A stretch of 64,000 nucleotides of DNA from an uncultured bacterium. Its GTDB lineage: Bacteria > Zixibacteria > MSB-5A5 > CAIYYT01. Both the position numbers and the translations under genes were made by a program. The notes beneath the pieces are model-generated. The model made no database searches. It was not told the DNA's origin and was given only the letters and a program-made list of their open reading frames with translations. Positions 31,716-64,000 of this stretch are shown in pieces (the stretch's first letter is position 1; every line of letters starts with the position of its first letter). Location: assembly GCA_963726455.1 (NCBI GenBank), contig CAVSCK010000005.1:64973-128972 (forward strand), in the 5' to 3' direction.

Positions 31716-31726
31716 GATGTGTCTGC

Positions 31727-33087: not shown

Positions 33088-33092
33088 TTGCG

Positions 33093-35420: not shown

Positions 35421-35438
35421 TTGCGCCCGGAAAGAAGT

Positions 35439-35945
35439 TTAGACCGTCTCTGTGAACGCCATCTCGTTGAGATCGTTCATAACCCGCGCGACCACGTCGT
35501 TGACCGCACTCACCACCGATTGCGTCAGTCCGTTGCCTGCGGAAAAATCGGCCCCCTCGATACCGTAAACCACCAACCGTTCCGGCAATCGCCCGAGTGC
35601 GCGCGCCAACTCCACGGCCTCAGCGACACTGAAGGCATGCGTGGAGTAATTGAAGAAATCGCTCGGAATTGGAACCCGGGCGGCATCAAATCGATAGATG
35701 AGTCCCGGCGTTGACGACGATTGTGCTGCGTCTATGATGATAACTGTATCTGCTTCGCCAAAACGCTCCAACAGTGACACGCCCTCACCTGAATGGACGA
35801 CGGCGTTTACGCGCGGCAGTGTCAGCGCCGCGATTCGGTTCGCAACCGCAATACCGGCAGCGTCATCGTGTCGGAACTCGTTGCCGACCCCAATTACCAA
35901 AGCAGTGTTGCGCCGGACGGTCGAGTCGTCATCAGTCGCCGCCAT
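35439..35945 (-). CDS. hydrogenase maturation endopeptidase
   Basis: 168 aa; LVIGVGNEFRHDDAAG motif. Confidence 0.8.
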   Translation of the reverse strand: MAATDDDSTVRRNTALVIGVGNEFRHDDAAGIAVANRIAALTLPRVNAVVHSGEGVSLLERFGEADTVIIIDAAQSSSTPGLIYRFDAARVPIPSDFFNYSTHAFSVAEAVELARALGRLPERLVVYGIEGADFSAGNGLTQSVVSAVNDVVARVMNDLNEMAFTETV

Positions 35946-35951
35946 TTTGCA

Positions 35952-37244
35952 TCACCGCCTGTCGATCTTCAGTTTCAGGAAATGTGTCGCGCAGGAAATG
36001 CACGGATCATAGTTGCGCACCGCCTGCTCGCATTGCCAGGTCAGATTCTCGTCCGACAGATGGATATGCCGTGGCACGAATTCCGCCAGATCATTCTCGA
36101 TTGTCTTTTGGTTCTGCGATGTCGGCGGCACGATCTTGGCCTCGGTTATCTTGCCTTTTTCGTCGACACGATACCGATGATAGCAGATACCGCGGGGTGC
36201 TTCCGAGCAGCCGCATCCGACCCCGGCGCGTTTCTTAAATTCGACTGCCGGTTTCTCCGGCTTCTCATAATTTGCGATAATTCGTAATGCCTCATCACAG
36301 GCATAGACCGTCTCAATGCTGCGCACGATTATGCCTTTGAAGGGATTGCGACAGCTATTGCCCAGGCCGACCTCTCTGGCGACCTGCTGCGGCACCGGCG
36401 ACAGTCGGTCGAAATTGAGATTGAAGCGCGCCAACGGCCCCACGAAGTAAGCGCCACGCGCTCTGATTACGGAGTGTAGAGCGTGAGAATGCTTGACGTG
36501 CTCCTCCGCAAAATGCTGCTCGTACTCCTTGATCTCGATATCCAGCCCGCGATTCGACACCAGTCGTCCTTCGATGAGTGGATACTCATCCGGATGCCGC
36601 ATGGCGACGAATTCGTAGTCACGCTCAAAATCCGGAAACTTGAAGGTCGCCACCCATTTTGACGTTTCGATTGCGGCATCGCGAGCCCATTTGAGTTCCT
36701 CCGCGATCGAAGCCAATTGCGACTTTTCCGGCGCCTTGTAGAATCCGCCGACGCGCACGTTGATCGGATGAATTTCGCGTCCGCCAATCAGCGTCATAAG
36801 ATCATTCCCGCATTTCTTGAGGCGCAGACCCCGCTTGACGATGTCGGGATAATCCTTCGCCAGTTGAATGGCGTCGGGATAGCCAAGGAAATCAGGCGCG
36901 TGCAGCATGTAGATATGCAGCGCGTGGCTTTCGATCCACTCGCCGCAGTATATTAGGCGCCGCAGCGCGCGTAGTTGTCCATCGACCGTGACACCGAATA
37001 TCTGTTCCATCGCGCTCACCGCGCTCATTTGATAGGCAATCGGGCAGATTCCGCAGATGCGTGCGGCAATGTCGGGCGCTTCGGCATAATGACGGCCACG
37101 CATAAATGCCTCGAAGAAACGCGGCGGTTCGAAAATCTTCAGTTTCACGTCTTCCACGCGGTCGTCTTTGATCTTCACATAGAGCGATCCTTCGCCTTCG
37201 ACTCGCGCCAGATAATCGACCTTGATCGTTCTGCTATCTTTCAT
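35952..37244 (-). CDS. hydA: [NiFe]-hydrogenase large (alpha) subunit, group 3b-like
   Basis: N-terminal RICGICP and C-terminal DPCISCATH nickel-binding motifs; 430 aa. Confidence 0.93.
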
Positions 37245-40998: not shown

Positions 40999-42546
40999 TC
41001 ACGGCTGCACGCCCGTGTGACACTCGGAGCAATTCATTTCCTTCCAGGCATCGCTGATGTCAACCGGATGCGAAAACTCCAGACCGGCCTCGGTAGTTGC
41101 GACCTGCAAACTGTCGGGCCTTCCCTGCAGCAAGATGGCATGACACGAATTGCATTCACGCGTCACGATCAAACCATCCGAGCTTTTGTGCTTGCCGTCG
41201 TGGCAACGGAAACATCCCTTGTTAATGAAATGCCCAATGTTGTTCGGATACACTGCCCAGCGAGCTTTCATCGTCGGGAAAATATTCTTCGAATACGCTT
41301 CCTGTGCGGCCGCAATCGCCTTATCGATGTTTGCTTCATTCGCCGAGAAGTATGCCGCATCCCGCGCTTTATAGAAATCGTTGATCGTGCTGGCGATTCC
41401 GGCATAAGCGTCATCCTTGGTGTCGTATTCCTTCGCAATCGCTTCGACCGCAATTTTCTTGATCTCCGGCAGCTTCCGATCGATTCGTTCTTCCAGCAGC
41501 ATTTCGTCGATGGCATAATCCGGGGAATTAAAGATATGGCTCGGGCGGTTGTGGCAATCTACGCAGTCCATTCTCCGCTTGACGGCTTTGTTGATTTCAT
41601 CCTCAGTGAGCGGAGTCTCGGTATCCTGATAGACTGTCACTCGCTTGGTCCGCTTGTCGGTGATTCTCACCCAGGGAATATCCTGCCGCTTTTCGTCGCG
41701 CGGGATGTACTCGATGTCGACGCCGACATTCATATGCCAGTGAATTCCTGCGGTGTATCCCGGTTTGGGATCGCTGCCGCCGACCTTGACCAGCATATTG
41801 ATCGTCCAGGGCGTGCTCGTTTCGTCGTATTGGTACTGTTTGAATTCACGCTGCTGGGAACCGAATCTTTTCTCGGGCCAATGGCAGCGCTCGCACGTTT
41901 CCTGGGCCGGGCGCAGGTTGGTGATCGGCGTCGGAATCGGCCGCGGATATTTGTTCGCGACAACGGCGTAAACCTGATAAGCGCCCGACAATTTCGATTT
42001 GGCGTACCAACTGGCGCCATACCCGACATGGCACTCGGCGCACGACACCCGCGCATGCGGCGACTGCTGATAGGCCGTGTGTTCCGGTTCCATGACGGAG
42101 TGACAGGTCAGCCCGCAGAAGGCCACCGACTCCGTGTAATGATAGGCCTGATAACTTCCCACCGCGCTGATAACCAGAATCAACACTGTTCCCGACAAAA
42201 AGATGATCGTAGCGTTGCGGTGTCCGGTGCGGTTAAGATCCACCAGCGGCCACTTGGGAATCTCCTGCTCGCCGGTCTTCCGCCAACGCCGCCATTGCCG
42301 GTACATTCCTACCGGAATCAAAAACAATCCAAACACAAACCCGGCGGGTAATACCATGTAAACGAATATTCCGAGGTAGGTGTTCGGCTCCTCGGCGCCG
42401 GCGCTGATAATGAGCAGTACGACAATCGCCAGACCCACGATAACTGCGATGGTAGCGCCCAGGGCGCTCGTCCAGTTCTGAGTGAGGCGCGGTAGTTTAG
42501 GTCTTTCCATAGCTAATTCATTCTCTCCAAAAAATGCACCGACCAT
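40999..42546 (-). CDS. membrane-anchored multihaem c-type cytochrome (seven CxxCH motifs)
   Basis: Two N-terminal TM helices; haem sites CGLTCH, CAECH, CERCH, CVDCH, CFRCH, CNSCH, CSECH; alternative ATG at 42510. Confidence 0.85.
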   Translation of the reverse strand: MVGAFFGENELAMERPKLPRLTQNWTSALGATIAVIVGLAIVVLLIISAGAEEPNTYLGIFVYMVLPAGFVFGLFLIPVGMYRQWRRWRKTGEQEIPKWPLVDLNRTGHRNATIIFLSGTVLILVISAVGSYQAYHYTESVAFCGLTCHSVMEPEHTAYQQSPHARVSCAECHVGYGASWYAKSKLSGAYQVYAVVANKYPRPIPTPITNLRPAQETCERCHWPEKRFGSQQREFKQYQYDETSTPWTINMLVKVGGSDPKPGYTAGIHWHMNVGVDIEYIPRDEKRQDIPWVRITDKRTKRVTVYQDTETPLTEDEINKAVKRRMDCVDCHNRPSHIFNSPDYAIDEMLLEERIDRKLPEIKKIAVEAIAKEYDTKDDAYAGIASTINDFYKARDAAYFSANEANIDKAIAAAQEAYSKNIFPTMKARWAVYPNNIGHFINKGCFRCHDGKHKSSDGLIVTRECNSCHAILLQGRPDSLQVATTEAGLEFSHPVDISDAWKEMNCSECHTGVQP

Positions 42547-42733: not shown

Positions 42734-43723
42734 ATGAGAAGAGCTGTATTGATCGCGCTTGCCATCGTTTCGTTGTCGTTCATCTCATTTCTGACATCGC
42801 CGCAACCCGCCACTGCCGCCGCGATTGTCGCCGATCACACGACGGTCGCGAAGTTCGCGCAGATTCCGCAGGAATATTTCGACCAGATTCGCGCCAATTA
42901 CCGGTTCTTCTATGGCCACACATCTCACGGCAGCCAGATATTGACCGGAATCGGCATGTTGGCGTACGAGTATCCGCTGCAATGCGGCTCGCCGTCATTC
43001 TTCGAGTACGGCGACGATCTTGGCGCCGCCGGAGACATTACCTGGGTGCAGCCGACGCGCGATTTTCTCAATTCCAACCCGGATTACAATGTCGTGATGT
43101 GGTCATGGTGCGGCGGCGTATCCGACAATACTGAGGCCGGTATTAACAGTTATCTCAACGCGATGGAGCAACTCGAAAACGAATTTCCGAATGTCCGATT
43201 CGTATACATGACCGGCCATCTCGACGGCACCGGCGCCGCAGGAAACCTGTATGCGCGGAACAATCAGATTCGCCAGTGGTGTGCCGCAAACGGGAAAGTG
43301 CTTTTCGATTTTGCCGACATCGAGAGCTACGATCCGGATGGCGCGTATTACCCCGACGGCAGCGACGCCTGCGAATGGTGCTATACTTGGTGCGCTACCC
43401 ACACCTGCACTGACTGCGGAGGAAGTTGCGCGCATTCGCATTGTTTCAATTGCTATCAGAAGGCCAAGGCGTGGTGGTGGATTATGGCGCGTGTCGCCGG
43501 CTGGAACACGGATCCGGTTGGCTGCGGAGACGCCAACTCGGACGGTGGCATTGATATCAGTGACGCGGTATTCCTGATTGCCTACATCTTTTCAGGCGGC
43601 CCGGCGCCAAATCCGCTCAATTATGGCGATGCCAACTGCGACGCAGCCATTGACATCTCCGACGCGGTCTACCTGATAAGCTACATCTTCGCCGGCGGCC
43701 CTGCCCCTTGTGCAAGTTGCTAG
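42734..43723 (+). CDS. secreted protein with Cys-rich N-terminal domain of unknown function and C-terminal dockerin-like tandem module
   Basis: Signal peptide; Cys-rich stretch CEWCYTWCATHTCTDCGGSCAHSHCFNCY; C-terminus [27 protein letters not shown]...[32 protein letters not shown]. Confidence 0.6.
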   Translation: MRRAVLIALAIVSLSFISFLTSPQPATAAAIVADHTTVAKFAQIPQEYFDQIRANYRFFYGHTSHGSQILTGIGMLAYEYPLQCGSPSFFEYGDDLGAAGDITWVQPTRDFLNSNPDYNVVMWSWCGGVSDNTEAGINSYLNAMEQLENEFPNVRFVYMTGHLDGTGAAGNLYARNNQIRQWCAANGKVLFDFADIESYDPDGAYYPDGSDACEWCYTWCATHTCTDCGGSCAHSHCFNCYQKAKAWWWIMARVAGWNTDPVGCGDANSDGGIDISDAVFLIAYIFSGGPAPNPLNYGDANCDAAIDISDAVYLISYIFAGGPAPCASC

Positions 43724-46026: not shown

Positions 46027-47856
46027 TTACACCGGCGGGCAGGCAGCGCATGGCACCGGTCCCCCGCCAAATATGTATTGAATAAGGTACACCGCGTCCG
46101 CGATGTCGATCGACTTGTCACAGTTGGGATCCCCGGCTGTGGCTGTGACCGGCGCCGGTCCCCCCGCAAAAATGTAATTTATGAGGTAGACCACGTCGGC
46201 GATATCGACTCCACCGTCACCGTTGGCGTCGCCGCAAGTGAATTCAACCAGAGTAGTCCCCCACCAAGTGCCCCAGCGCGTGTCAGCAGGGTTCGGTCCA
46301 ACCGGTGTCGCCGCATATTCCTGAATCGTCCAGAAGCTGGTGCTATCCTTGGGGTCTACGACTGTGGCACTAAAATCCCCCCAGCGAACCTCAGTTCCGC
46401 CGAAGGTCTTGGTATAGATGCCCTCGCCGGCCTTGATCGTTGCCACGGTGCTCGTCGTCCCGATTGGATCGGTTGACCTGCGGCCGGTGTAAGCCGCTTC
46501 GACAAAGATGTTGGGATTCGAATGCGAGAACCCGAGAAAGACATCATTCCCGGAATTGACTGCAATACTGGGAAAGAACAGAAAGTCATTCGTGCCCATA
46601 TCAACCACGCCCGATTGCACAATCGGATTCGGTAGCGTCGCCGGATCGAGTTCATACCAGAAGACGGAAACGTGGTTGGGAGAATTCACCGGCAGGCCTG
46701 CACTGTGCGTGCACCAAATCCTGCCGTTACGGAAGACGGCATTGAGCATACGCGAATCGTTGGTTGACACCAGTGTGGCTGTGCCCTGTTGCTTGGCGTC
46801 TGGCTGATTATTCGAGAAATTATGTGCTACCGAGAATAACCCCGAGCCGCCAATCGTCGAACCAGGCACAGCGGCCCAAACCGGCGCCGGTCCCGTACCG
46901 GTGATTTGTGTCAATCTGAGGAGAGCTACTCCTCCCGAGGTGAATCCGGCATTATCGACCAGATATAGTGTCGGCTCATTACCGAATGTCTGACAGACGC
47001 GAAGCGCGAAACCTGAACCGACATTGCCGAAATTGTCTGATCCCACCGGAAAACTCGTGAAGGTCAACGGTCCCCCGGCAAGCGCCGTCGATTTTTCAAT
47101 TACCCACATCGACGTTCCGGAGAAAGTATTCCCCGTCACTTTGAACATGTTGGCCGTAATGGCAATCCAGGTTCCATTATACCCGATGTCCGGATAATCA
47201 GCCCAGCTAATGTGCGAGGTGTCCGCAGGTATGCGGTAGAATTTCCAGGTCCCCATCGGATTGGCGCTGTCGCTGACCGCCATCACCACAGCGGAATTCA
47301 CGGTTTGGAAGTCCGCGATGGACGACGCATACCAACGGTTGACGCTCGGGTCGTACAGAACGTGGGGATCACTAACATTGGTCGAACCCGTTGGCGACCA
47401 GAATGTCGGATAGGAGATTGTACTCAGGATATTCCCAAACTTGTCCTGCACCCTGATTTGTGAATTCAGCATCGTCATCACCCGGTTCAGACTTACGGCG
47501 CCGTGCGAATCCGGAGGGATCACGTGAAGGTTATCGGGCAAGGCCTGGAAATTTCTGACTACCGGCGGCACCTGCATCGGCGAAAGAAATTGCTCTGTCC
47601 CCAGACTCCCTGCACTACCCAACTTACCCAGTGGCCCACCAACCTCTCTCGGCGCCGGCATCAGCAATAGCGGTTTTACTTCCTGCACCTCCGCGGTCTT
47701 TGCCAGCGGTGCCCTCGCCTCCATGTTCTCCAAGTCCTGCCAGCTCACCTGAGCTACCGGATCAATCTGCATTTGTTGTCCGGAGACGCCAAAACTTGCC
47801 GCAGTCAGCAACAGTATTAGAACGAGCGTCGCCCGCGACGTTTGCCATATCGACAT
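46027..47856 (-). CDS. secreted protein of unknown function (paralog of 48164-50620) with C-terminal dockerin-like tandem module
   Basis: ATG 47856 with AAGGAG upstream; signal peptide; ~500-aa N-terminal domain shared with the next gene (...RWGDFSATVVDP...WGTWWGTT); C-terminus CGDANGDGGVDIADVVYLINYIFAGG...[32 protein letters not shown]. Confidence 0.6.
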   Translation of the reverse strand: MSIWQTSRATLVLILLLTAASFGVSGQQMQIDPVAQVSWQDLENMEARAPLAKTAEVQEVKPLLLMPAPREVGGPLGKLGSAGSLGTEQFLSPMQVPPVVRNFQALPDNLHVIPPDSHGAVSLNRVMTMLNSQIRVQDKFGNILSTISYPTFWSPTGSTNVSDPHVLYDPSVNRWYASSIADFQTVNSAVVMAVSDSANPMGTWKFYRIPADTSHISWADYPDIGYNGTWIAITANMFKVTGNTFSGTSMWVIEKSTALAGGPLTFTSFPVGSDNFGNVGSGFALRVCQTFGNEPTLYLVDNAGFTSGGVALLRLTQITGTGPAPVWAAVPGSTIGGSGLFSVAHNFSNNQPDAKQQGTATLVSTNDSRMLNAVFRNGRIWCTHSAGLPVNSPNHVSVFWYELDPATLPNPIVQSGVVDMGTNDFLFFPSIAVNSGNDVFLGFSHSNPNIFVEAAYTGRRSTDPIGTTSTVATIKAGEGIYTKTFGGTEVRWGDFSATVVDPKDSTSFWTIQEYAATPVGPNPADTRWGTWWGTTLVEFTCGDANGDGGVDIADVVYLINYIFAGGPAPVTATAGDPNCDKSIDIADAVYLIQYIFGGGPVPCAACPPV

Positions 47857-48086
47857 AAGCTTGTCTCCTTTCATCCCTTTGGACACTTCTCTTGTTATAA
47901 AGAAACCGATTCGCTCCCTCACAGTTCCCTGTGATCGGTTGTCATGAGTCTTTCTGGCTCTACGATTAAGGTACGCGGCACCCTGCCCCATTTGTGGCGT
48001 CTAATTGACCTCCATAAACACAAGTTCCTGGCGGAGTAAGCGGGCTGATTTCTGGGGGCAAGAGGCGATTCTTAAGGGTCTGCGCT

Positions 48087-48163: not shown

Positions 48164-49020
48164 TCAACAGCCGGCACACGGAGCCGGACCGCCGGAGAAG
48201 ATGTACGCGATCAAGTAGACGGCGTCCGAGATGTCAATTGAATGATCACAGTTGGCATCTCCCGCCTCCACCGGATTTGGTGCCGGACCGCCAGAGAAAA
48301 TGTAGGCGATCAAATAGACAGCATCCGAAATGTCAACGCTGCCACTGCGATCGGCATCACCGCAAACGTAAGGCGGATCGACGACTCTAAGGTTGACCGC
48401 TACTGTGTCTGTCAACGCCGGAGCGCTGCCGTCCTGCAAAGCGATCGAGAAATAGAAGGTAGATTTATAGGTTGGAGTACCTGTGATCGTCCCGACCAGG
48501 CCATCATTAAACGTGAGGCCGTACGGCAAGTCTCCACCGACGAATGACCAGGTGTAGGGTGGAATGCCGCCCGAGTGCAGGAACTGGAATTCGTATGGCT
48601 TGTGATAATAGGCATCGGGCAGAGCTGGGTTCACATGCAGCAGTGGCTCGATGTGCAGGAATCCGTCGCATGCGTCGCCGACGCCGTCCGTATCCGAATC
48701 CCATTGATCATTGTTGCTCACCAGAGGACAATTGTCGCAGGCATCACCAAACAAGTCACCATCAGCGTTCACTTGCGACAAATTGGGCGTATATGGGCAA
48801 TTGTCGACTGCATTCAGAATGCCATCATTATCAATATCGGGATCGCAAACATCACCCAGACCGTCACCGTCAGTATCCTTTTGATTCGCGTTGGCCACTG
48901 TCGGACAGTTGTCGCAGACATCACCGATGCCGTCGTGGTCGGTGTCAAGCTGATTGGCATTTGCCGTCATCGGGCAGTTGTCCACGGTGTCTGCAACTCC
49001 GTCTCGATCCATATCTACCA
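48164..49020. repeat. copy A of a ~850-bp near-identical 3' coding module (TSP3 + Ig-like + dockerin-like)
   Basis: Long runs nearly identical to 51059-51920 when aligned by eye; encoded peptides differ only at scattered positions. Confidence 0.8.
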
Positions 49021-50620
49021 TAGTCGTTCCCCACCACGTGCCCCAACGGCTGTCATCGACGCCCGGACCGACTTTCATCCCCGCATATTCCTGAATGGTC
49101 CAGAAGCTCAGACTATCCATCGGATCTACCACGGTAGCGCTGTAGTCTCCCCAGCGCACGCGTGTGCCACCGAAATTCTTGGTGTAGGTCGACTCACCTA
49201 ATTTGAGCACCTTAATCGGCGCCATGGTGCCCAGCGGGTCGGATGCCTGGCGGCTGGTGTATGCCGCCTGCGCGTAGATCGTCGGATTGGAACGCGAAAA
49301 CCCAATCATCGCATCATCATTGGCATTGGCATTTATGCTCGGGTAGAACAGATATGTATTCGCGCCCTCATCCAGTACGCCCGATTGCACGATCGGATTC
49401 GGCATTGCCGTCGGGTCGAGTTGATACCAGAATACGGCATCGCGATTGGCTGAAGATACCGGCAAACCTGCGGCATGCGTGCACCAAATCTTGCCGTTGC
49501 GGAAGACTGCATTAATGATTCGCGAATCATTGGTTGTGATCTTGGTCGTGGTACCAAGCTGGGACGCATTGAGCATTGAGCCGTTGAAATTATTGGCAAC
49601 CGCGAACAGCCCGGATTCGGCAATAGTGGATCCCGCTGTCGCGTTCCAGACCGGCGCCGGTCCGGTGCCGGTTATCTCAGTTATGCGCAGTTGATGGATA
49701 CTGGAGATCGTGATATTGTTATTGTCAACCACATACAACTTCGGCTCTGAACCGTAGGTCTGACATACGCGCAGAGTCCAACCGTTGAATCCACCGAAGA
49801 TTCCTGATCCCACCGGAAAATAAGTGACTGTCAGTGGGCCGCCCGAAAGCGCTGTGGATTTGTCGACCACCCACATCGCTGGTCCCGCCTGAGATCCGCC
49901 GGCAACCGGAAACATATTTGCAGTCAGCGCGATCCAGGTGTCGTTATAGCCAATGTCCGGATAGTCCGCCCAGTTGATGTTGCTCATGTCTGCCTTGATC
50001 GTGAAGTACTTCCAGACGCCCATTGGATTACCATTGTCCGTCACCGCCAACAGCACTTCTGAACTCGCCGACTCGTAATTGGCGATGGAGGTGGCGTAAA
50101 ACCGCCCTGTGCCCGGATCGAACAGTACGCGCGGATCGCTTAGCGTTGAGGCCCCGACCGGCGCCCAGAATGCTCCGTACGAAATCGTCGAGAGAACCGT
50201 GCCCATGCGATTTTGCACCCGCACTTCGGAATTCAGGAATGTCATGATGTATGAAACACCGACGCCGCCGTCGGTATCGGGAGGAATAACAGCGCCGTTA
50301 TCCGGAATCGCCTGGAAACTTCTCACCACCGTGGGCGCTTGCACATTCTGGCTTACACCTGCGACACTAAGCGCATCCAGAATGTTGTTTTGACCGGTCG
50401 GTTTTGCTATCTCTGTTTCTGCAGGCATCAGCATCAGCGGCGGCACTCTGTGAACCTGCTTTTGCGCCGGCGTCATATTCTGGTCTATGGCCATCAGGTC
50501 ATTCCAGCTCACCGATGCAGCAGGTGACAGAGTCACTCTCTGACCGGTCACAGCCAATAGTGATGTGATTGAGGTCAACGAAAGAAACAGAAATACAACG
50601 AACATTCGCTTTGCACTCAT
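48164..50620 (-). CDS. secreted protein: unknown N-terminal domain (paralog of 46027-47856), thrombospondin type-3-like repeats, Ig-like domain, dockerin-like tandem module
   Basis: Signal peptide [23 protein letters not shown]; TSP3-like DxDxDGxGDxCDNCP units; Ig-like region [21 protein letters not shown]; C-terminus ...[32 protein letters not shown]. Confidence 0.65.
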
Positions 50621-51058: not shown

Positions 51059-51920
51059 TCAGCACCCCGCACATGGCGCCGCGCCACCACTGAAGATGTA
51101 TTGGATCAAGTACACCGCATCCGAGATGTCGGCTGTATGATCGCAGTTGGCGTCTCCCGCCTCTGCCGGGTTGGGCGCCGGACCACCGGCGAAGATGTAA
51201 GCTATCAAATAGACAGCGTCCGAGATGTCGACGCTGCCGCTGTGGTCGGCATCCCCGCAAACGTAAGGCGGATCGACGACTGAAAGAGTGAGTGAGACCG
51301 TGTCTGTCAACGCCGGGACGCTGCCGTCCTGCAGAGCAATCGAGAAATAGAAAGTAGATTTATAGGTCGGTGTACCGGTGATCGTACCGGTCAAACCATC
51401 ATTAAACGTGAGGCCGTATGGCAAATCCCCGCCTACAAAAGTCCAGTTATATGGGGGCGTGCCGCCGGCGTGCAGAAACTGGTAGGTATATGGCTTGTGG
51501 TAGTAGGCATTGGATAATATAGGATGCAGGTTCAGTTCGGGCTCGATGTGTACTGAGTCGTCGCACCAGTCGCCGAGTCCGTCCGCATTTGAGTCCCACT
51601 GATCGTTGTTCGCCAAAAGCGGGCAATTATCGCAGGCGTCGCCGAGGCTATCGGCATCGCTGTTCTCCTGACCCGGATTGACGGCGTACTTGCAATTGTC
51701 GGCGGCGTTAGGCAATCCGTCGTTGTCAATATCGGGATCGCATGCATCGCCCAGGCCGTCGCCGTCGACGTCGTTCTGAGTCGCATTGACCACAGTCGGG
51801 CAGTTGTCACAGGCATCGCCGATACCGTCATTATCGGTATCGAGCTGGTTGCTGTTGGCCAGACTCGGGCAATTGTCAACCGTATCAATAACCCCGTCGG
51901 CATCGAAATCGCCCACAACG
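51059..51920. repeat. copy B of the ~850-bp near-identical 3' coding module
   Basis: See copy A at 48164-49020. Confidence 0.8.
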
Positions 51921-53452
51921 CCGACCTTCAAATTGGCAATCATTGTTGAGGCGCATGACGACGAGAGGACTTTAACTTCCACCAAAGTTGGCGAACCGGT
52001 GTAGGAATTGCTGTTCGGAGCACTGGCCCCGTTAAATGTCTTGTTAATCCATAGATCGCCGGCTTGCGTGGGCGGATTGTTGTCCGCACACTCGATATCG
52101 ACCCAGCGGTGAGTATCGTTCGAGTTATTGTTCTGGGTGTCATCGATATGCCAGATCGCGATTCCGCATCCGGGAAGGTAGGCATCAAAGCCAACTTGTT
52201 GCCGATTCTCTACGAGAAAGTATTGAGTACTGGGCAATACGCTGCTTCTGAGCTTAAAGCATGACTGATTGGTTTCCGCTTGATCGAGATGAACGCCGTA
52301 GGCATTGACTGACGGCTGAGTCACCGGAAGCCAACCTTTCCGGATCTTACACCAGGCACTCATGTGCGCCGGAGATGCACCGTTCTGGCCCGGACCATTC
52401 CAACTTCCTCCCGCCATCAAACACCAGTTGCCGATTCCATCGCTGCTGTAATCAGTGTCATAAAGATCGGGAAGTCCGATGGCATGCCCGTATTCGTGCG
52501 CGAAGACGCCGATCGTTGAACGTACGCCCGACCAGACCATTTCCGGTTCCATGGTGTAACCACTGACCGTCTTGCCGCTCGCCGAGATGGAGGGGGAAAG
52601 ATGACCGGAATGTGACCAGGGATAATTGGTATAACCAGCTTCGGCGCCCGGCCCGACGTGTACGATAAACAGACCGTCTACGATGCCGTCATTGTTGTTA
52701 TCGAATGGCGCAAAATCGACTCCCGCGTCGCGGGCTGCGGTCACGGCCTCGGCGGCCAATATGGCGGCCCGCCCCATCCCGGAGGCATAGCCATAGTAGT
52801 TTCGATTCTGGCTCGCGGTGTAAAATCCTACGACCGTGCCCGTCACCGTGAAGGCATCGTATGATGTCTCCAGATAGAATTTGTGCAAGGAACCCAAATC
52901 GAAATTCGCGCCGTTGAATAACGAGTCGAAATCGCTTGGCGGGTAAGTATTGCCTTCATCCGGATACTTGATGAGAATCACCAGCACGTTGTTTGTCGTC
53001 GTTCTGGTCGCGCGCTGAGTCAGAGTCGGATCATCCGGGAACGAATAAAAGGACGGATCAGGTCTTCCGACCGTACTGGTGGCTGCCAGACTAAGCGGCA
53101 TCTGGGCCAAAAAACTTCTCTCGGCGCCGGATCGCCTGTCCGCCGCGGTGGCTCTGAAATTCGATGCCTTGAGGTTTCCGTCTGCATCCAGAACGGCATA
53201 GCAATACCAGCCGTCAGTATCCCGGGCGACAGTGTATCCGTCCTCGGTAATCATACGTCCGTTTCTTTCATCACCAATGACCCTAAGAGTGAGCTTTGAT
53301 ACTCCGTCCGGCTGGGTCACTTCAAACGCCCGATCGGGATTTGCCGGGACAGACAGCGCAGGTTGAGCAATCAAGACCACGCAAAAGGCCATCATCGTCA
53401 GCAAGTGCCCGAGCATCGGCCAGGCGTGAGCAATAGCGCTTCTCTGCTTCAT
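51059..53452 (-). CDS. secreted M6-family zinc metalloprotease with TSP3-like repeats, Ig-like domain and dockerin-like tandem module
   Basis: Signal peptide; HExxH site [19 protein letters not shown]; C-terminal ~280 aa almost identical to those of 48164-50620; ends ...[32 protein letters not shown]. Confidence 0.8.
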
Positions 53453-53544: not shown

Positions 53545-53705
53545 CTCCCGGAATGGCTTGGTCGGACGGACATTGGCGACCAATTATGCTATGCCTGCCA
53601 ATCAATTATGAGGAACGACACAGTAGGTACATTCTCGCAAGTATCTGGTACTTAAGATATACATTTTGCTCCATTTGTCAAGGCAGATGTAAGCGAAACG
53701 CCCGT
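53545..53705 (-). promoter_or_regulatory. conserved upstream element, copy 2
   Basis: Aligns by eye with 50690-50850, including ATTGGC-N19-GCCAAT at 53572-53602 and the TTGACA-containing block. Confidence 0.5.
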
Positions 53706-53810: not shown

Positions 53811-56800
53811 CTAACACCCTGCACACGGCGCCGGTCCACCGGCGAAGATGTACTGTATCAGATAGACCACGTCTGAGATGTCCACCGCCTGATCGCAATT
53901 GGCATCACCGGCCGCAATCGGATTCGGCGCTTGCCCGCCGGCGAAAATATACTGAATGAGAAAGACAGCATCCGAGATATCAATTGCCCCGTCACCGTTG
54001 GCATCACCGCAAAGGTAAGTCGGCACAGTTTCGTAGATGGTCAGGAACGTATCAGCAGGAATCGACGTAAATACCCGAACGGTATCAGAAGGCCAGCGAG
54101 CAATCAGAGAGTCGATCATCGTGTTCGACCCCAGTCCGAATGCGGCTATCGGCGGGCTCTGATTCCATCCCCCGGAAACCGTCGTGATTTCGCGAATCTG
54201 CTGCTTGCCTCCAGCAACGATGCGGACTCGCGCTCCGATGCTATTCTTGTTGGATGTCGTGCCGACAAGTTTCGCCTGCAGCCAATGATTATTGTCGCCA
54301 ATCTCGTTTCGAAGGAGCCGACTGCGGCAATTGTATCCGTACATATTCGACAGGTAAATGTCCAGATCGCCGTCGCGATCATAATCGGCCCAGACGCCAC
54401 CCCGACCGGTGCAACCCAAATCGGTAAGAGGATTGATCAGGTTTCCGGTATAGGCCACGGCAAAGTTACCGCTCCCGTCGTTGCGGAAGAGCTTGTTGGC
54501 TTCATTGGAACCGTTCGTTACGAAAAGATCCAAATCACCATCATTGTCGTAATCGCCCCACGCACAGCCCTGCGTGTAATCCCAAGCAGTCATCACGGCG
54601 GGCGTCACGTCCGTGAAGACTCCGTTCCCATCGTTACGAAACAACTTGTCGCTCAGCCCCGACCAGTAGACGGCAACAAACAGGTCGAGATCTCCGTCGT
54701 TGTCATAGTCGCCCCAATCCGCTGCGAAACTATGGGAGGCAATCGCCAGAGCTGGAGGTGTGACGTCGGTAAAGGAGCCGCCGTCATTGCGCAACAGTCT
54801 GTTCGGACCGTTGAAGTTTACGATGAATACGTCGGGGTCATTGTCGTTATCATAGTCGGCCCAAGTCGACATATGAGTACTAAACGTATCTCCCAGGGGG
54901 CCGCTAGTAGCGTCAACGAATGTTCCAGCGCCGTCGTTACGAAACAGCTTATTCGCTGAAGTCAGTTGCGATAGATACAGATCGAGGTCACCGTCCGTGT
55001 CGTAGTCGACCCAGGCGGCACCACTGCCATTGTTAGCATCATTTAGAGGCGCGCTGGAAACATCTGTAAAGGCGCCTCCGCCATCGTTGCGATAAAGCTT
55101 GTTAGCTCGGCTATCGTTGCGGGAGACATAGATGTCGACATCTCCGTCGTTGTCGTAGTCGCCCCAGACTCCGACTATTCCAGTCGCCGCAGCGCCCATG
55201 CTATTTGGAGTAACCTCCACGAAAGAGCCGGCATCATTCCTGAACAGATGGCTGGAGTCCGGGTCGTACATCTGCGTCAGTAGAAGATCGAAATCGTTAT
55301 CATTATCGTAATCCGCCCATGCTGCCGACGAGATTGAGCCGTATCGTGACAAAACTCTGGGAGTGACGTCGTTCCATTCTGGCGGTGCTGAAATGAATGG
55401 AAACGCGGCCAGCAAATTCGGTCTGCCGCCGATGTTCCCAGCCGGAGGCGTGACTTGTGCCGTAGCGGTATTTTTGAGAACCGTGCGCAGAATCGCTGGA
55501 GTGAGGGTCCCGCCCAGTCCGCCGACTCCCTTCCAGCGGCCCACACAGCACGCCACTGCGCCGGCAACAATTGGAGATGCGCTTGACGTGCCCGCGAAGA
55601 CGCTGGTGTATGCGTAATCAGTGCCATCGGCATTGTACAGATCTCCATAACCCGTGGTCACGACGTTCTCGCCCCAACCTTGAAGATCATAGCGAGTGCC
55701 GTAGCTGGCAAACGACAGTCGCTGCAGGTCGCCTTCCACATACGTGCCACCCGGATAAACACCACTTGCTCCGACAACAATTGCTCCCGATCCATTTGGA
55801 TGCCAGTTGAGCATGTCAGTATCATAGGCGCCATTTCCGCCGGCTTCGACCACATGAATCCCGTTTGTTACCGCGTTTACAATGGCGGTGAAGACGGGAT
55901 TCCATGACTGATTGTTCACGTCGCCCCACCATTCTATGGGGATATAAGACCCTCCGCCGTAGTCCCATTGCTGTTCGAGCAGGATAATATCGCCGGCATT
56001 CAGGCTGGCAGTCGCCAGCGCAATGGCGCCAGCAACATTCCAGCTCGGCGTGGGACTTCCATAGTAAGTGCCGCATGTCTTGAGATTCGCACCGTAGCAG
56101 ATTCCGGTAGTGCCCCAGCCGTTATTGTCCGCGACCATAACTCCGATGACGGCAGTCCCATGATCGTCGTCGCTGAAAGGATCGACGACATTGCTGTTTA
56201 TCTGCGACCCCACTACCTTACTGATGTCTGCATGATTGTAGTTCCAGCTATATTCCAGGTCACAGACCGTGACCCCGGAACCGTTACCCCCTGTTTGCGT
56301 CCACGCGTATTGCGCATCAATCCCCACCGGAGCTGAACTCGCCGGACGCATGTATCGCTGGCCGGTGTCATAAGGGGGCGGTATCATCGGCAGCATCATT
56401 GGTTTGGGAACCGGACGCGCCCACATGATTTCGGGTAGAAACTCGAGATCGCGGCAGAGCCCCCAAAGATCATGGCCTTTGCCAAGGCGTAATCGGTAGA
56501 TGTTGTTGAGATTGTACACCGGCTGTCCCGAGTTCTGCTCGCCTACGGCTTGCATCTCATCGAGCTTCTCCTCCGAAACATTGCACGTGCGCTGCCATTC
56601 GACCGGCCCCACCGCGGCAAGCGTGCTCAACACGGAACTCAGGGACCTACCAGTAATATCCACCGGCACTCCCAGTCGTAATCTTACAGTCAGGTATGGC
56701 TCGAAGATCACCTCGATAAGGTCATCTTCATGTCCATATTCTCCGACGGCCTGCCTGCTCACCGACTGCGGCCCGACCGCCAGTGCCTCCGGATCCACGG

Positions 56801-56909
56801 CGATACTATTTCCGAAAGTCGGGGTGATAATCACGAGCCCTACCAGGAACGCCGCCACCAGTGAGCAGACGTGCGGAACTGTTGACCTGCAATTCACAAT
56901 AACCTCCAT
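53811..56909 (-). CDS. secreted S8 subtilisin-like serine protease with FG-GAP/VCBS repeats, ASPIC/UnbV-like domain and dockerin-like tandem module
   Basis: Signal peptide from ATG 56909 (alternative start 57035); S8 triad regions (VTVCDLEYSW, DDDHGTAVIG, GTSSASPIVAG); multiple WGDYDNDGDLDLFV repeats; C-terminus [26 protein letters not shown]...[32 protein letters not shown]. Confidence 0.85.
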   Translation of the reverse strand: MEVIVNCRSTVPHVCSLVAAFLVGLVIITPTFGNSIAVDPEALAVGPQSVSRQAVGEYGHEDDLIEVIFEPYLTVRLRLGVPVDITGRSLSSVLSTLAAVGPVEWQRTCNVSEEKLDEMQAVGEQNSGQPVYNLNNIYRLRLGKGHDLWGLCRDLEFLPEIMWARPVPKPMMLPMIPPPYDTGQRYMRPASSAPVGIDAQYAWTQTGGNGSGVTVCDLEYSWNYNHADISKVVGSQINSNVVDPFSDDDHGTAVIGVMVADNNGWGTTGICYGANLKTCGTYYGSPTPSWNVAGAIALATASLNAGDIILLEQQWDYGGGSYIPIEWWGDVNNQSWNPVFTAIVNAVTNGIHVVEAGGNGAYDTDMLNWHPNGSGAIVVGASGVYPGGTYVEGDLQRLSFASYGTRYDLQGWGENVVTTGYGDLYNADGTDYAYTSVFAGTSSASPIVAGAVACCVGRWKGVGGLGGTLTPAILRTVLKNTATAQVTPPAGNIGGRPNLLAAFPFISAPPEWNDVTPRVLSRYGSISSAAWADYDNDNDFDLLLTQMYDPDSSHLFRNDAGSFVEVTPNSMGAAATGIVGVWGDYDNDGDVDIYVSRNDSRANKLYRNDGGGAFTDVSSAPLNDANNGSGAAWVDYDTDGDLDLYLSQLTSANKLFRNDGAGTFVDATSGPLGDTFSTHMSTWADYDNDNDPDVFIVNFNGPNRLLRNDGGSFTDVTPPALAIASHSFAADWGDYDNDGDLDLFVAVYWSGLSDKLFRNDGNGVFTDVTPAVMTAWDYTQGCAWGDYDNDGDLDLFVTNGSNEANKLFRNDGSGNFAVAYTGNLINPLTDLGCTGRGGVWADYDRDGDLDIYLSNMYGYNCRSRLLRNEIGDNNHWLQAKLVGTTSNKNSIGARVRIVAGGKQQIREITTVSGGWNQSPPIAAFGLGSNTMIDSLIARWPSDTVRVFTSIPADTFLTIYETVPTYLCGDANGDGAIDISDAVFLIQYIFAGGQAPNPIAAGDANCDQAVDISDVVYLIQYIFAGGPAPCAGC

Positions 56910-57113
56910 GCAAATAGACAGTATCACGGTCAATCCGTCCGGCAGACGGCTCGATCGCGTGCCCCTGTAGTAGTTGTTGTCAGCAGAGATGTCGTTGTCT
57001 ATGTTAAAGATACTGCCCTTACGGAGAAATGTCAATTGGAAAAGTGGAGTCGCGGGTACTGATTGCCGGTTCTTCTAACCGTTGATTGGGCATTCGGTTG
57101 CGCTCATAGGCAC

Positions 57114-57143
57114 TAAAAAAAGAGGCGACACCGCGTCGCCTCT
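57114..57143 (-). terminator. rho-independent terminator downstream of the sigma factor gene
   Basis: AGAGGCGAC / GTCGCCTCT stem; on the minus strand followed by TTTTTTT. Confidence 0.8.
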
Positions 57144-59980: not shown

Positions 59981-62152
59981 TTACGATTTTACCGTAAAGT
60001 GGTAGGCGCGGGAGTCAAGATTCCCCAGCGAGAAATACAGCCCCTCACGAAGTTCCTCTGTGGTCGTGATGATTTCCTCATCCGTAAAAACATCAACCAT
60101 ATTTACTTTTGTCCCACGGTAGCCGTATGCCTTAAGGTCAACCTGCACAACTACTTTAGTAGCACCGGATCGTGTGCGCCGGAATGGCTGTGACGGCGAG
60201 GAATTAAGCAGGTAGAACATCCCACTCTTCTCCCCCTTGTGGATGACAGCCCGTACACTCGGGTGGGAAGTCTTGATTCTGAACGATACGCCGAGATCAG
60301 AAAGTATGCTCTTCAGGAAACTGATCTTGGCATGGTTGCCCTGGGACGAGCAATCGAATGACAACAAAATGATAGTTCCCTTGAAACGATTTATCCGTAT
60401 TCCCACGGTCTTGCCGGAATAGGTCGCCAGCTTCTTGCTCTTCTTCTCGGTCGAAACAATCGAACCGTAGACATAGCCCGGGAATTCTTCTTCGCCGGCG
60501 ACGACATTGCCAATCTTGCCGAGCGGTTGCGTCTTGCAGTGAATGGCGCTGGCCAGAACCTGGCAGTTATCCAAGTTGGAGTCGTACTTCGGCAGCAATC
60601 CGACTAGAATCAAATTCGTGCCTTCTCTTGCCTTCTCCAGCAGGAACTCTTGCTTGTCGGCATCCATGATCTCGCTTACGGGGACGACAACATTTTTGAG
60701 TTTGTCGAACGAAAGCGGATTATCGAGGTCGGGAATCACAAAGTCCTGCTTGATCCGGTCGAGGTCTCTTCCCAGTTCCGGCATGGTGAAATCGTTCAGC
60801 GTCTGCACGTAGCCGAATGGGCCGGCGTCCTCCAACAATGAAACCCAATTGTGCACCTTGTAGCAGGCCATGCCCAGCGAGGTTTGCGGCTCATAGGCGC
60901 CGATATCGGTTTGTGTCGTGAAGGTCATCAACTTGCGCACGATTTCGTAAGATTCCTGGATAGCGCCGTCCGCTCCCAGAGGCGAATCATACCAGTTTTC
61001 GGACTCCACGAACTTGTACTGATTGAATCCCTTGATCCCACCGGCCAGTCCCAGAGTGAGCAGATATTTGGTCGCATCACCGGATATATGGAAATGCTTT
61101 TTCGATGTCGTCGAGTCAGAGGTGCTATTGCCGACCGACACGGATGATCCCCACGGGAACTCCGAATTGGCACGCAGATAGCGAATCTTTTGCAAAGTAG
61201 CCGCCGAGGTGCGGTCCCAACCGATACTCACCGTCGGGAAGATTTCGCCATCGGAATCGATTATCGGCGTCATTGGCGCCTGGAACGATTTGTGAAACGC
61301 CAACGTCTGATAGAACAACGGCTCACAGGAATAGCTCTTATACTGCTCGATGAGATGTGCCGCGTACTCTTTAATCAGATGTTCTTTGAAACGGAACCAG
61401 TCCAGAAGCTTCGTCAACGGCCGATCTTTGGAAATGATAAAATCACGCGGCGGCTGCACCGACGCAAAATCAGCTGCGCTTTCACCGTAGGCAAGATTAA
61501 GCTTCTTGATAGTCTCGTACCGCTTCTCCAAGAACTGCGGATAAAGAGTGGTGACAACATAGGGGTTGTAGTCGGACTTCCATGGATAGGGATCGCCGCC
61601 GAAGTAGTTGCCCGCGTCCAACTCCACCAGGAACAACGGACCGCGCGGGTAGATGTAATTTTTCACGATTTCCGTCAGCCCGTTGAAATAATGCTTAACG
61701 AAATTCTCCATGCGAGGATGCATATTCGAGGGGTACGAAAATTCGGGCAGGCCGTTCTGCAGATCCGTCAAGGTGAGGGCGCCTTCGGAATCGAGCGAAA
61801 AGATCTCCGGATACTTGGATAAGAAAATCGGCAGTCCGCCATTTTCCACTTCGGCCAGAACCATCGGCCCGGGGCGCAAGATGATCTTAAACCCGAATTC
61901 ACGAGCCAGTTCGATAAACACTATCAAATCCTTGGCAGGATCAGTGTAACCTGAGAAATCAAACTCGCGGCGAATATCTTCGTGGATCGACCAGGGAACG
62001 GCAGTCGAAATGACCTTGAAGCCGGCGCGACGGATGCGCTCAAAACAAATCGACCAATAACGCTTACTTACCCTAAAGTATTGCATCTCAACGCAATAGG
62101 GCAAGTATTCCTCTTTGCCGATTGTAAATTTATGTCCCGTTACTGCTATCAT
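59981..62152 (-). CDS. glycoside hydrolase family 35-like beta-galactosidase (cytoplasmic, no signal peptide)
   Basis: N-terminal TIM-barrel region VPWSIHEDIRREFDFSG...ILRPGPMVLAEVENGGLP follows the GH35 pattern; the region looks more AT-rich than its surroundings. Confidence 0.7.
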   Translation of the reverse strand: MIAVTGHKFTIGKEEYLPYCVEMQYFRVSKRYWSICFERIRRAGFKVISTAVPWSIHEDIRREFDFSGYTDPAKDLIVFIELAREFGFKIILRPGPMVLAEVENGGLPIFLSKYPEIFSLDSEGALTLTDLQNGLPEFSYPSNMHPRMENFVKHYFNGLTEIVKNYIYPRGPLFLVELDAGNYFGGDPYPWKSDYNPYVVTTLYPQFLEKRYETIKKLNLAYGESAADFASVQPPRDFIISKDRPLTKLLDWFRFKEHLIKEYAAHLIEQYKSYSCEPLFYQTLAFHKSFQAPMTPIIDSDGEIFPTVSIGWDRTSAATLQKIRYLRANSEFPWGSSVSVGNSTSDSTTSKKHFHISGDATKYLLTLGLAGGIKGFNQYKFVESENWYDSPLGADGAIQESYEIVRKLMTFTTQTDIGAYEPQTSLGMACYKVHNWVSLLEDAGPFGYVQTLNDFTMPELGRDLDRIKQDFVIPDLDNPLSFDKLKNVVVPVSEIMDADKQEFLLEKAREGTNLILVGLLPKYDSNLDNCQVLASAIHCKTQPLGKIGNVVAGEEEFPGYVYGSIVSTEKKSKKLATYSGKTVGIRINRFKGTIILLSFDCSSQGNHAKISFLKSILSDLGVSFRIKTSHPSVRAVIHKGEKSGMFYLLNSSPSQPFRRTRSGATKVVVQVDLKAYGYRGTKVNMVDVFTDEEIITTTEELREGLYFSLGNLDSRAYHFTVKS

Positions 62153-62285
62153 AATAAAAACAGGCGTACAATTTATGCAAAATGGACAATAAGTCAACCA
62201 AATAAATGTATATTGCCGACAATTCCCTCCAATTCGATATACGGCAATACATTAGAGACTTCGCACCATGGCTGCCATTTTGGCA

Positions 62286-62340: not shown

Positions 62341-63330
62341 TTACTTCAACAGTAACATCTTCTTAGTTTCGGTGAAGTCTCCTGATGACATGCGATAGAG
62401 GTAGACACCGGAGGCCACCGAAGAACCATTCTGGTCGTTGCCGTCCCATTCGACGCGTTTGTAGCCGGCTTTCTCGTAATCGTCAAGCAAAGTCCTGACC
62501 TTCTGGCCAAGCATGTTGAACACTTCAACTTTCACATTGCCGGATTTGGGAATCGCAAACTGAATTGTGGTCGAAGGGTTGAACGGATTGGGCACATTCT
62601 GGCTCAACTCATACTTCGTCGGAAGATTCAAATCAGCATTGCCTTCCACCGGTAACGCGATGTCGCATGGAGGAGTGAACTGCTTGCACATGGCGAATTT
62701 CGGGGTAGACTTCTTTGTCACTGTGTTGGACGCGGAGACGCCCGGTACTGGGGGCAAAGTCCAGGGAAAGATATTGGTCTCAATGAACGGGCCGGCAGGC
62801 GGATACAAAGAGACTGAGTCCAGCCGTACCACTTGCCGAACGGTGTCAATCATCTTGATGATTATACTGCCAAGATATTGTCCGGTATCACCGGTACAGG
62901 CCGGAATAGGGGATTCACCCGAAAAGTCAGCCCAACCGAACAAGAGTGAGTCTCCCGCCGCCGACACCTTTAATTGCATGGAGCCGCCGAACAGGATGGC
63001 ATTATTCTTTTTGAAGTTCTTGCTGAACTTGAGTTGTTGACCGTTCTGCCTCACTCCGAAATTGAACCCGCCAACGGGGTAATCGTTAAACAGATAGACC
63101 GGTACGTAGAAAGAATCGCCCTTGGAAGTCGGCGAAAACGTTATACAGACGGGGCATCCAATTCGAAGCGTATCGCAAATACCCAGATCCAACTCCTTCA
63201 AGTTGGTGCTGTCGGCGTCCGCGATGCCTCCGTGTACCACATAGCACGTGTCGACCGCGTAGACGCTGGCGCCCGGCACCACCGCCGCAACCGATAGCAC
63301 GAATAGCACTAGCAAAACCTTCAACTTCAT
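62341..63330 (-). CDS. secreted protein with candidate cohesin-like domain and T9SS C-terminal sorting domain
   Basis: ATG 63330 with GGAGG upstream; signal peptide; cohesin-like segments GDSFYVPVYLFNDYPVGGFNFGV and LFGWADFSGESPIPACTGDTGQYLGSIIIKM; C-terminus NVPNPFNPSTTIQFAIP...GVYLYRMSSGDFTETKKMLLLK. Confidence 0.55.
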   Translation of the reverse strand: MKLKVLLVLFVLSVAAVVPGASVYAVDTCYVVHGGIADADSTNLKELDLGICDTLRIGCPVCITFSPTSKGDSFYVPVYLFNDYPVGGFNFGVRQNGQQLKFSKNFKKNNAILFGGSMQLKVSAAGDSLLFGWADFSGESPIPACTGDTGQYLGSIIIKMIDTVRQVVRLDSVSLYPPAGPFIETNIFPWTLPPVPGVSASNTVTKKSTPKFAMCKQFTPPCDIALPVEGNADLNLPTKYELSQNVPNPFNPSTTIQFAIPKSGNVKVEVFNMLGQKVRTLLDDYEKAGYKRVEWDGNDQNGSSVASGVYLYRMSSGDFTETKKMLLLK

Positions 63331-63518
63331 TTTACCTCCTATGTAGGGAAACATATTCCATTCACTGCCTGACCTTCGCATTCCAATCTCTCCTTCCTAC
63401 CGCGTCAAGGATAACAGCGTTATACCTTAACTTTCTCCACTACCCACGAACGCAAAGTATTCCGAATATATATCCGTTTCCGAAACTCCAGTCAACAATT
63501 TTTTCAAAAATAATTGCC

Positions 63519-64000
63519 TCAGCAACCCGCGCATGGCGCCGGACCGCCGGAGAAAATGTACGATATCAGATAAACAGCATCGGAAATATCAATCGAGCCG
63601 TCGCAGTTCACCTCTCCAGTGCTATATGGCGAAGGCGCCGGGCCGCCGGAGAAGATATAGGCGATCAAATAGACGGCGTCGGAAATATCAACCCCGCCAT
63701 CTCCGTTAGCGTCGCCGCAGACTGCGGGACTGCCGACGGTGACGCACGCACCCTGAAACGCCCCCTGATAAGTAAATAAACCGTGCGTGAGCGACTGCGT
63801 GAAGCTGGAATAAACCGTGTCGCGAATGCAGATTTTCTGGTTTTTCAACGCATTAGTAACCTGGAATCTGACTTTGCAAATCACGCCGCTGCCTGCCGCC
63901 AGAGGCGCGTGTCCCCCGCCCATGTTCGCTCTCAGGTCAAGGGTGGCTACCTTGCCGCCGTTGTAGATGTTGCTGAAGATCGCCTGCTCAAAGCCGGCGC
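63519..64000 (-). CDS. C-terminal part of a protein with cohesin-like segment followed by dockerin-like tandem module (5' end beyond window)
   Basis: Frame stays open to the window end (...FEQAIFSNIYNGGKVATLDLRANMGGGHAPLAAGSGVICKVRFQVTNALKNQKICIRDTV...); ends [26 protein letters not shown]...[32 protein letters not shown]. Confidence 0.5.
   Translation of the reverse strand, partial: AGFEQAIFSNIYNGGKVATLDLRANMGGGHAPLAAGSGVICKVRFQVTNALKNQKICIRDTVYSSFTQSLTHGLFTYQGAFQGACVTVGSPAVCGDANGDGGVDISDAVYLIAYIFSGGPAPSPYSTGEVNCDGSIDISDAVYLISYIFSGGPAPCAGC

Follow-up and report, generated by a model that had tools for sequence, protein, structure and literature searches.

Does an open reading frame (ORF) that joins a subtilisin-like domain to an FG-GAP propeller, an ASPIC/UnbV segment and a dockerin-like end encode a working protease, and by which of these modules would it be held at the cell? 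The question was raised by a minus-strand gene ending at position 53811 of a 64,000-nucleotide stretch (hereafter the window) of contig CAVSCK010000005.1, from an uncultured bacterium of the Zixibacteria lineage (assembly GCA_963726455.1). Sequence comparison and structure prediction identify the product as a secreted pre-pro-subtilase in which the S8 catalytic domain is followed by a CRTAC1-like propeller/ASPIC unit and a type I dockerin. Residues are numbered on the 1028-residue form that starts at GTG 56897, and the coordinates of all features are collected in the table below.

The protein was submitted to a Pfam search in which every match given here exceeded its curated cut-off. In the 1074-residue numbering used for that search, Peptidase_S8 (PF00082) was found at 252-527 (49.4 bits versus a cut-off of 21.8, E 5e-13, 276 of the 288 profile positions), UnbV_ASPIC (PF07593) at 933-999 (55.1 bits, E 6.9e-15) and Dockerin_1 (PF00404) at 1010-1063 (37.2 bits versus 22.9), while FG-GAP_3 matched seven stretches with 177.6 bits. 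Alignments to PDB entries, Foldseek comparisons and an AlphaFold model computed with 40 homologs (mean predicted local distance difference test score, pLDDT, of 80.5) agreed with these assignments and with the domain order given in the first-pass annotation. No Pfam match was obtained for the pro-domain (residues 55-165), and Foldseek aligned unautoprocessed pro-subtilisin E (3whi_B, 460 columns) and pro-Tk-subtilisin (2z2z) over the pro-domain and catalytic domain together. By analogy with subtilase maturation, cleavage would fall within the Pro-rich linker at residues 171-189. The signal-like segment was modelled as a helix at residues 8-24 with low pLDDT.

The catalytic residues D213, H246 (in H-G-T), N355 and S438 (in G-T-S-x-A-S-P) align with those of AK.1 protease (1dbi) in the order Asp-His-Ser. 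AK.1 protease is the nearest solved subtilase by sequence with an E-value of only 7e-4, and the catalytic domain is therefore a distant member of S8. Asp213, His246, the oxyanion Asn355, Ser438 and the H-G-T and G-T-S motifs were invariant in 40 of 40 homologs (46-80% identity), and the A-S-P that follows Ser438 was conserved in at least 90% of them. Loss of the triad on alignment with S8 members, which the first-pass annotation had named as the observation that would overturn the subtilase assignment, was thus seen neither against AK.1 nor among the homologs. Since the triad and oxyanion Asn are invariant, the protease is very probably active. The motif around the Asp is unusual, C-D-L-E-Y-x-W instead of D-T-G, and its C, D, E, Y and W are invariant in the same 40 sequences, which points to a subfamily signature and not to decay. 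The protein belongs to S8 by profile, by triad and Asn, and by the subtilisin fold with pro-domain of its predicted structure.

The calcium motif W-x-D-Y-D-x-D-[GN]-D-x-D occurs in exactly seven copies, one per blade, with DxDxD[GN]xxD in each, and the model shows seven four-stranded blades, so that the earlier estimate of about eight FG-GAP repeats has to be lowered to seven. The S8-propeller junction is modelled without a long linker, with pLDDT of 72-87 across it, and in this prediction the propeller and ASPIC unit is rigidly attached to the S8 domain. The best fold match in the PDB was the crystal structure of murine CRTAC1 (cartilage acidic protein 1; 9etn_A; Foldseek E 3.6e-29, template modelling score, TM, 0.70, 512 columns), followed by fervidolysin, site-1 protease, many subtilisins (TM 0.72-0.75) and unprocessed pro-subtilisins. 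CRTAC1 was also matched by sequence over the last blades and the ASPIC domain (E 1.1e-15). As in CRTAC1 and in the bacterial CRTAC1 family/ASPIC-UnbV proteins, a calcium-blade FG-GAP propeller is followed directly by UnbV_ASPIC; unlike in CRTAC1, with which identity is about 21%, Pfam finds no EGF-like domain that could form an EGF-like tail, and the module lies between a protease and a dockerin. The protein shares the CRTAC1 module and is not a CRTAC1 ortholog.

The C-terminal module is made of two near-identical 22-residue calcium-loop/helix repeats, DANGDGAIDISD and DANCDQAVDISD, which both carry D or N at positions 1, 3, 5, 9 and 12 as read directly from the sequence. It contains four Cys, ends the chain with PCAGC and forms helices at 974-985 and 1007-1019 in the model. 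The two repeats, read in the sequence and in the predicted structure, assign it to type I dockerins. A type IX secretion system (T9SS) sorting domain (PF18962/TIGR04183) was detected in the protein neither by Pfam nor by NCBIfam and, judged by its sequence, the protein is not itself T9SS cargo.

Searches for relatives revealed that the S8/FG-GAP_3/UnbV_ASPIC core is carried with high coverage by at least 120 clusters at 90% identity among 5.8 billion proteins, which come from Zixibacteria, Eisenbacteria, Krumholzibacteriia, Planctomycetota and one WOR-1 bin. The combination had been called unusual; with at least 120 clusters in several phyla, this term is too strong. Among one-genome-per-species representatives, about 10 loci span most of the protein (the best being 78% identical), all from Zixibacteria, some of them labelled "uncultured Ignavibacteria", except one Gemmatimonadetes bin. 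The source of the window is thus a bacterium of Zixibacteria type whose species this set lacks. Most of the 579 confirmed genome matches cover residues ~500-960 alone, that is the propeller and ASPIC domain, and are spread over many phyla. A search with the pro-S8 cassette alone gave proteins of ~480-800 residues (most of 555-600) that match 98-100% of the cassette at 55-64% identity. Their C-termini carry a dockerin, a T9SS sorting domain, GEVED, RCC1 repeats or other modules, and their sources are Latescibacteria, Aegiribacteria, Fermentibacteraceae, Bacteroidales, Planctomycetota and Verrucomicrobiota. In a rough neighbour-joining tree of 220 cassettes, computed without support values, the long forms are intermixed with the short ones, at least 10 changes being counted, and some of the short forms may be truncated genes. 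These sequence comparisons indicate that the family arose by shuffling, in which a conserved pro-S8 cassette was combined with various modules for targeting and anchoring.

The full-length family has three types of tail. The window protein represents the first, in which the chain ends with the dockerin; in Eisenbacteria a T9SS sorting domain comes straight after ASPIC; and in a Zixibacteria subclade a dockerin is followed by a conserved module of about 150 residues and a T9SS sorting domain. The first dockerin Cys is missing in many orthologs. The subclade comprises P0014, P0016, P0019, P0023, P0027, P0030, P0032, P0035, P0039, P0040, P0042, P0045, P0061, P0068 and P0009, with loci L005, L008 and L011. 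Direct Pfam and PDB sequence searches with the post-dockerin module were negative, and a profile search gave a cohesin match that was not significant. In contrast to these sequence searches, prediction of the tail structure (pLDDT 74) gave PDB fold matches that are nearly all cohesins: the best is the Clostridium perfringens GH84C cohesin-FN3 (2w1n, E 4e-9), and others are C. cellulolyticum cohesin 2vn5_A (TM 0.67), C. thermocellum cohesin 1ohz_A (TM 0.69) and the non-cellulosomal cohesin of Archaeoglobus fulgidus 2xdh (TM 0.67). The module has, in its predicted structure, a cohesin fold, and some members of the family would therefore have a cohesin and a surface anchor on the same chain as the protease, propeller and dockerin. 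A database search with the module profile added just three fragments, and this module type was not found in the 64-kb window. One subclade member, P0009 (1756 residues), contains an additional second propeller-ASPIC unit.

The window encodes seven dockerin-ended ORFs: the S8 protein, two M6 metalloproteases that contain thrombospondin type 3 repeats (ORFs 9951-12899 and 51059-53452), and four others whose function is unknown or non-catalytic. Three of the seven are thus proteases. A candidate docking partner is encoded by ORF 62341-63381, on the same strand as the S8 gene and 5.3 kb away. Its C-terminal domain (CTD) matched TIGR04183 with 42.3 bits versus a cut-off of 23, and also PF18962/PF13860, and its N-terminal domain had no Pfam match. 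An exhaustive phmmer search of 1.84 billion representatives with the N-terminal domain gave 48 relatives. Among the 30 that were aligned, a dockerin is the last domain of 12 and a T9SS domain that of 11, and 2 match Pfam Cohesin. In P0256, which has the domain three times, the third copy (601-726) overlaps the Cohesin match at 615-717 (42 bits), and in P0273 a copy at 514-639 overlaps one at 521-622. Up to three copies are present per protein, together with dockerins or T9SS domains, as in scaffoldins. The five best PDB matches of the family profile were all CipA cohesins with marginal E-values (0.03-0.19, the best being 0.033). When the window-type and subclade cohesin-like families were compared by hhalign the similarity was weak (probability 12%), and hhalign of the subclade spacer profile with ORF 62341 was negative. 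Taken together, the homology data lend moderate support to ORF 62341-63381 as a candidate surface anchor with a single divergent cohesin. Sequence searches with the N-terminal portions of two dockerin ORFs, 42734-43723 and 46027-47991, detected no cohesin.

These results are compatible, at a level that we consider moderately probable, with a secreted pre-pro-subtilase that is tethered at the cell surface by a cohesin, uses its propeller as a binding module and serves in protein scavenging. The protein would be exported by the Sec pathway; the pro-domain would act as folding chaperone and inhibitor before being removed by self-cleavage in the linker; and the active enzyme would be kept at the surface by calcium-dependent dockerin-cohesin binding, for example to the T9SS-anchored product of ORF 62341-63381. 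The propeller would be a calcium-stabilised ligand- or substrate-binding module that keeps the protease attached to a protein or glycoprotein polymer, and the enzyme would work beside the dockerin-tagged M6 metalloproteases encoded adjacent to it and supply a protein-scavenging lifestyle. The modular, surface-organised proteolytic system proposed from the first reading of the sequence is in this respect partly supported, by seven dockerin ORFs with three proteases and one cohesin-like ORF with a T9SS domain; the binding of dockerin to cohesin, like the part of the propeller in proteolysis, is something that we infer. Several points weigh against the tethered scavenging protease. The window protein lacks a T9SS domain in a cell that is presumably diderm, with an outer membrane to cross. 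The cohesin assignment of ORF 62341-63381 was reached by transitive homology with marginal PDB E-values and no direct Pfam match, and no window-type cohesin was found within 6-10 kb of the orthologs fetched. The predicted template modelling score of the AlphaFold model is 0.65, which bears on the relative orientation of S8 domain and propeller, and substrate binding by the propeller would be only the default role of an accessory propeller, by analogy.

The far greater abundance of propeller and ASPIC proteins without protease (most of the 579 genome matches) and the variety of C-terminal modules joined to the pro-S8 cassette fit a general-purpose processing cassette. They would agree with the propeller and ASPIC domain being the working part, as an adhesin, a lectin or a matrix-binding module, and with an S8 domain that cleaves chiefly in cis or attacks a narrow target, in the service of maturation or shedding rather than of nutrition. 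This alternative is unlikely, since the S8 domain is not set off from the propeller by a disordered stretch that could be cleaved, further degradative enzymes with dockerin tags, M6 proteases among them, are encoded around the gene, and the short pro-S8 relatives are plain secreted or T9SS-anchored proteases. Still less credit can be given to a catalytically dead pseudo-protease that serves only as scaffold: the low Pfam S8 score and the replacement of D-T-G would suit it, but it was rejected on the conservation of the triad, to which the invariance of Asn, of H-G-T and G-T-S and of the Asp motif itself is added, and is hardly credible.

A further explanation concerns the dockerin-like end, which could be a lineage-specific tag for calcium-dependent folding, for sorting or for binding to wall or polysaccharide, the four Cys and P-C-x-x-C being the signal. 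All seven tags of the window stand at the extreme C-terminus with a common Cys pattern, some orthologs carry a T9SS sorting domain at the position of the dockerin, and a single, weakly supported cohesin-like module is found in the window and none within 6-10 kb of the orthologs fetched. Against these observations, the calcium ligands are complete in both repeats, which have type I dockerin helices as well, the first Cys is missing in many orthologs, and relatives of the cohesin-like module often occur with dockerins or T9SS domains and in multiple copies as in scaffoldins; moreover, in the subclade the dockerin is internal and followed by the cohesin-fold module and the T9SS domain, and it is therefore not itself a terminal sorting signal. 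We consider such a tag distinctly unlikely. The subclade proteins also suggest an extension of the cohesin-tethered protease, very unlikely as it stands, in which surface protease arrays would scaffold themselves without a dedicated scaffoldin and the CRTAC1-type propeller would be the substrate-capture element. Members with dockerin, cohesin and T9SS domain would be fixed to the outer membrane, where they would bind either members that have only the dockerin, the window protein being one, or each other in a head-to-tail manner, and the cohesin class used would be one that current profile libraries miss.

The tethered protease was compared with known systems. The S8 enzymes with accessory domains (fervidolysin, 1r6v), the dockerin-bearing S8 of clostridial cellulosomes and that of Ca. 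Stygibacter (PMC8542988) are its nearest comparators, which share the pre-pro layout, the Asp/His/Ser triad, the subtilisin fold, non-catalytic C-terminal modules and a terminal type I dockerin; unlike in these, the catalytic domain is very divergent and the accessory module is a CRTAC1-like propeller with ASPIC. The architectures that a survey of 2008 gives for prokaryotic serine proteases include Subt-(Dockerin_1)2 and Tryp-(FG-GAP)3 but not S8-propeller-ASPIC (PMC2605481). No paper on an S8/FG-GAP/ASPIC fusion was found, and literature searches on subtilase with FG-GAP and dockerin, on Zixibacteria with dockerin and on ASPIC/UnbV function returned nothing specific. For Cloacimonadota (Ca. 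Stygibacter), a cohesin-dockerin complex with a dockerin-bearing S8 and a scaffoldin with T9SS CTD has been proposed from metagenome-assembled genomes (PMC8542988), as has a "planctosome", a cohesin-dockerin complex for peptide degradation, in freshwater Planctomycetes (PMC6461901), and the idea at system level is therefore not new. Common to these proposals and to the window are dockerin-tagged peptidases, a surface-anchored cohesin protein (here a candidate) and no link with cellulose. The differences are the Zixibacteria-like phylum, a single-module cohesin candidate undetected by Pfam Cohesin, a cargo that includes the S8-propeller fusion and M6/thrombospondin type 3 proteins, and a sister-subclade protease that bears dockerin, cohesin and T9SS domain. 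The glycoside hydrolase/toxin complexes of C. perfringens have enzymes with cohesin or dockerin modules of their own, and in GH84C (2w1n), as in the predicted structure of the subclade homologs, the cohesin is borne by an enzyme and not by a dedicated scaffoldin; these are, however, Gram-positive glycosidases with about 10% sequence similarity, and the window protein itself has no cohesin.

New in the present analysis are the S8-CRTAC1-like fusion as a described entity, the dockerin/cohesin/T9SS variants of its tail and cohesin-like modules that standard profiles miss. A large subtilase family, with pro-S8 cassette and CRTAC1-type propeller in at least 120 clusters of several candidate phyla, is thereby added, and no current idea is overturned. 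As cohesin-like modules in these phyla can escape the Pfam Cohesin model, surveys of cohesin-less dockerins in uncultured FCB-group bacteria may undercount the partners. If dockerin and cohesin pair as proposed, proteases would be displayed on the surface of Zixibacteria through dockerins bound to T9SS-anchored cohesins, which would bear on protein scavenging by these sediment and soil bacteria. Self-scaffolding arrays with the propeller as capture element, if they exist, would offer a first functional handle on the CRTAC1/ASPIC module.

At the level of the gene, an uninterrupted ORF extends over 53811..57035 with its stop codon at 53811-53813, and the annotation of P0001, a database protein with 100% identity, starts at TTG 57035. 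The starts ATG 56909 and TTG 57035 had both been put forward; the sequence favours a third, GTG 56897, giving a product of ~1028 residues, because it is preceded at a 5-nucleotide spacing by GGAGG (56903-56907), because homologs have just 20-55 residues, with a hydrophobic signal-like segment, ahead of the conserved Y-x-C-E-D-D-L-I-E-V block, and because a promoter-like site overlaps TTG 57035. This TTG is the first base of the TTGACA-17-TATCTT site and, homolog N-termini being shorter, is an unlikely start. ATG 56909 (1032 residues) has no GGAGG-type site upstream and was set aside in favour of the GTG as a less likely start. GGAGG/AGGAG also stands before the starts of other secreted-protein genes of the window (3268, 42734, 50620, 47856 and 63330). 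The gene appears from its sequence context to be a stand-alone transcription unit, because the upstream sigma-factor gene has a terminator, the S8 gene has its own promoter-like site and it has no conserved neighbours: the sigma-70, HtrA and M6 neighbours are missing beside the orthologs, including the 78% identical one (L004), and no conserved operon or neighbourhood was found. The terminator, a hairpin with T-run at 57115-57143 (-), AGAGGCGAC-GCGGT-GTCGCCTCT-TTTTTT, was read directly and is unlisted by the terminator scan. A near-identical TTGACA-16-TATCTT, again a consensus match only, lies at 53654..53681 (-) before the neighbouring M6 gene.

Table. Coordinates, in the window, of the S8-propeller gene, its predicted domains and related ORFs.
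Feature	Position	Strand	Basis or remark
Promoter-like TTGACA-17 nt-TATCTT	57007..57035	-	consensus match only, 10/12 positions
Shine-Dalgarno GGAGG, 5-nt spacer and GTG 56897	56895..56907	-	favoured translation start
Signal-peptide-like N-terminus, residues 1-29, MNCRSTVPHVCSLVAAFLVGLVIITPTFG	56811..56897	-	read from sequence; homologs begin with similar hydrophobic segments
N-terminal pro-domain, residues 55-165, alpha/beta fold	56403..56735	-	pLDDT 80-93
Disordered Pro-rich linker, residues 171-189	56331..56387	-	pLDDT <50; presumed autoprocessing region
S8 catalytic domain, residues 190-505	55383..56330	-	Pfam, structure and sequence alignment
Asp213 codon	56259-56261	-	
His246 codon	56160-56162	-	
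Oxyanion Asn355 codon	55833-55835	-	
Ser438 codon	55584-55586	-	
Seven-bladed FG-GAP (FG-GAP_3/VCBS) beta-propeller, residues 508-865	54303..55376	-	Pfam, motif count, model
UnbV_ASPIC beta-sandwich, residues 871-955	54033..54287	-	PF07593; model beta strands 871-955; aligns with the matching part of CRTAC1
Type I dockerin-like module, residues 962-1028	53814..54014	-	PF00404, PDB dockerin matches, model helices
Candidate partner ORF: cohesin-like module (~62776-63198) and T9SS type A CTD (62353-62592)	62341..63381	-	346 residues; likely start ATG 63330
Dockerin-ended ORF	9951-12899	-	
Dockerin-ended ORF	42734-43723	+	
Dockerin-ended ORF	46027-47991	-	
Dockerin-ended ORF	48164-50620	-	
Dockerin-ended ORF	51059-53452	-	
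Dockerin-ended ORF	63519-63998	-	cut by window end

The six further dockerin tags have four Cys at fixed places and the terminal motif GGPAPC-x(1-2)-C, and half of the six proteins have N-terminal regions without family match. ORF 9951-12899 ends in PCKP, without the final Cys. The products of 48164-50620 and 51059-53452 are 78% identical over their last 283 residues (thrombospondin type 3 repeats, He_PIG and dockerin) and unrelated in their N-terminal parts, which suggests that the C-terminal block was recently duplicated or exchanged. A second protein with a T9SS CTD, containing fibronectin type III-like repeats, is encoded at 3265-5451 (+), so that T9SS sorting domains and dockerin tags are both in use in this genome. 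Ordinary chromosomal content was found at 30660-37244, 40999-42546, 14517-17084 and 59981-62197 (all on the minus strand), namely genes for hydrogenase maturation (HypF and a HypE-like protein), for the large subunit of a NiFe hydrogenase, for a multihaem cytochrome and for ClpB, and one that resembles GH35/42 beta-galactosidase genes.

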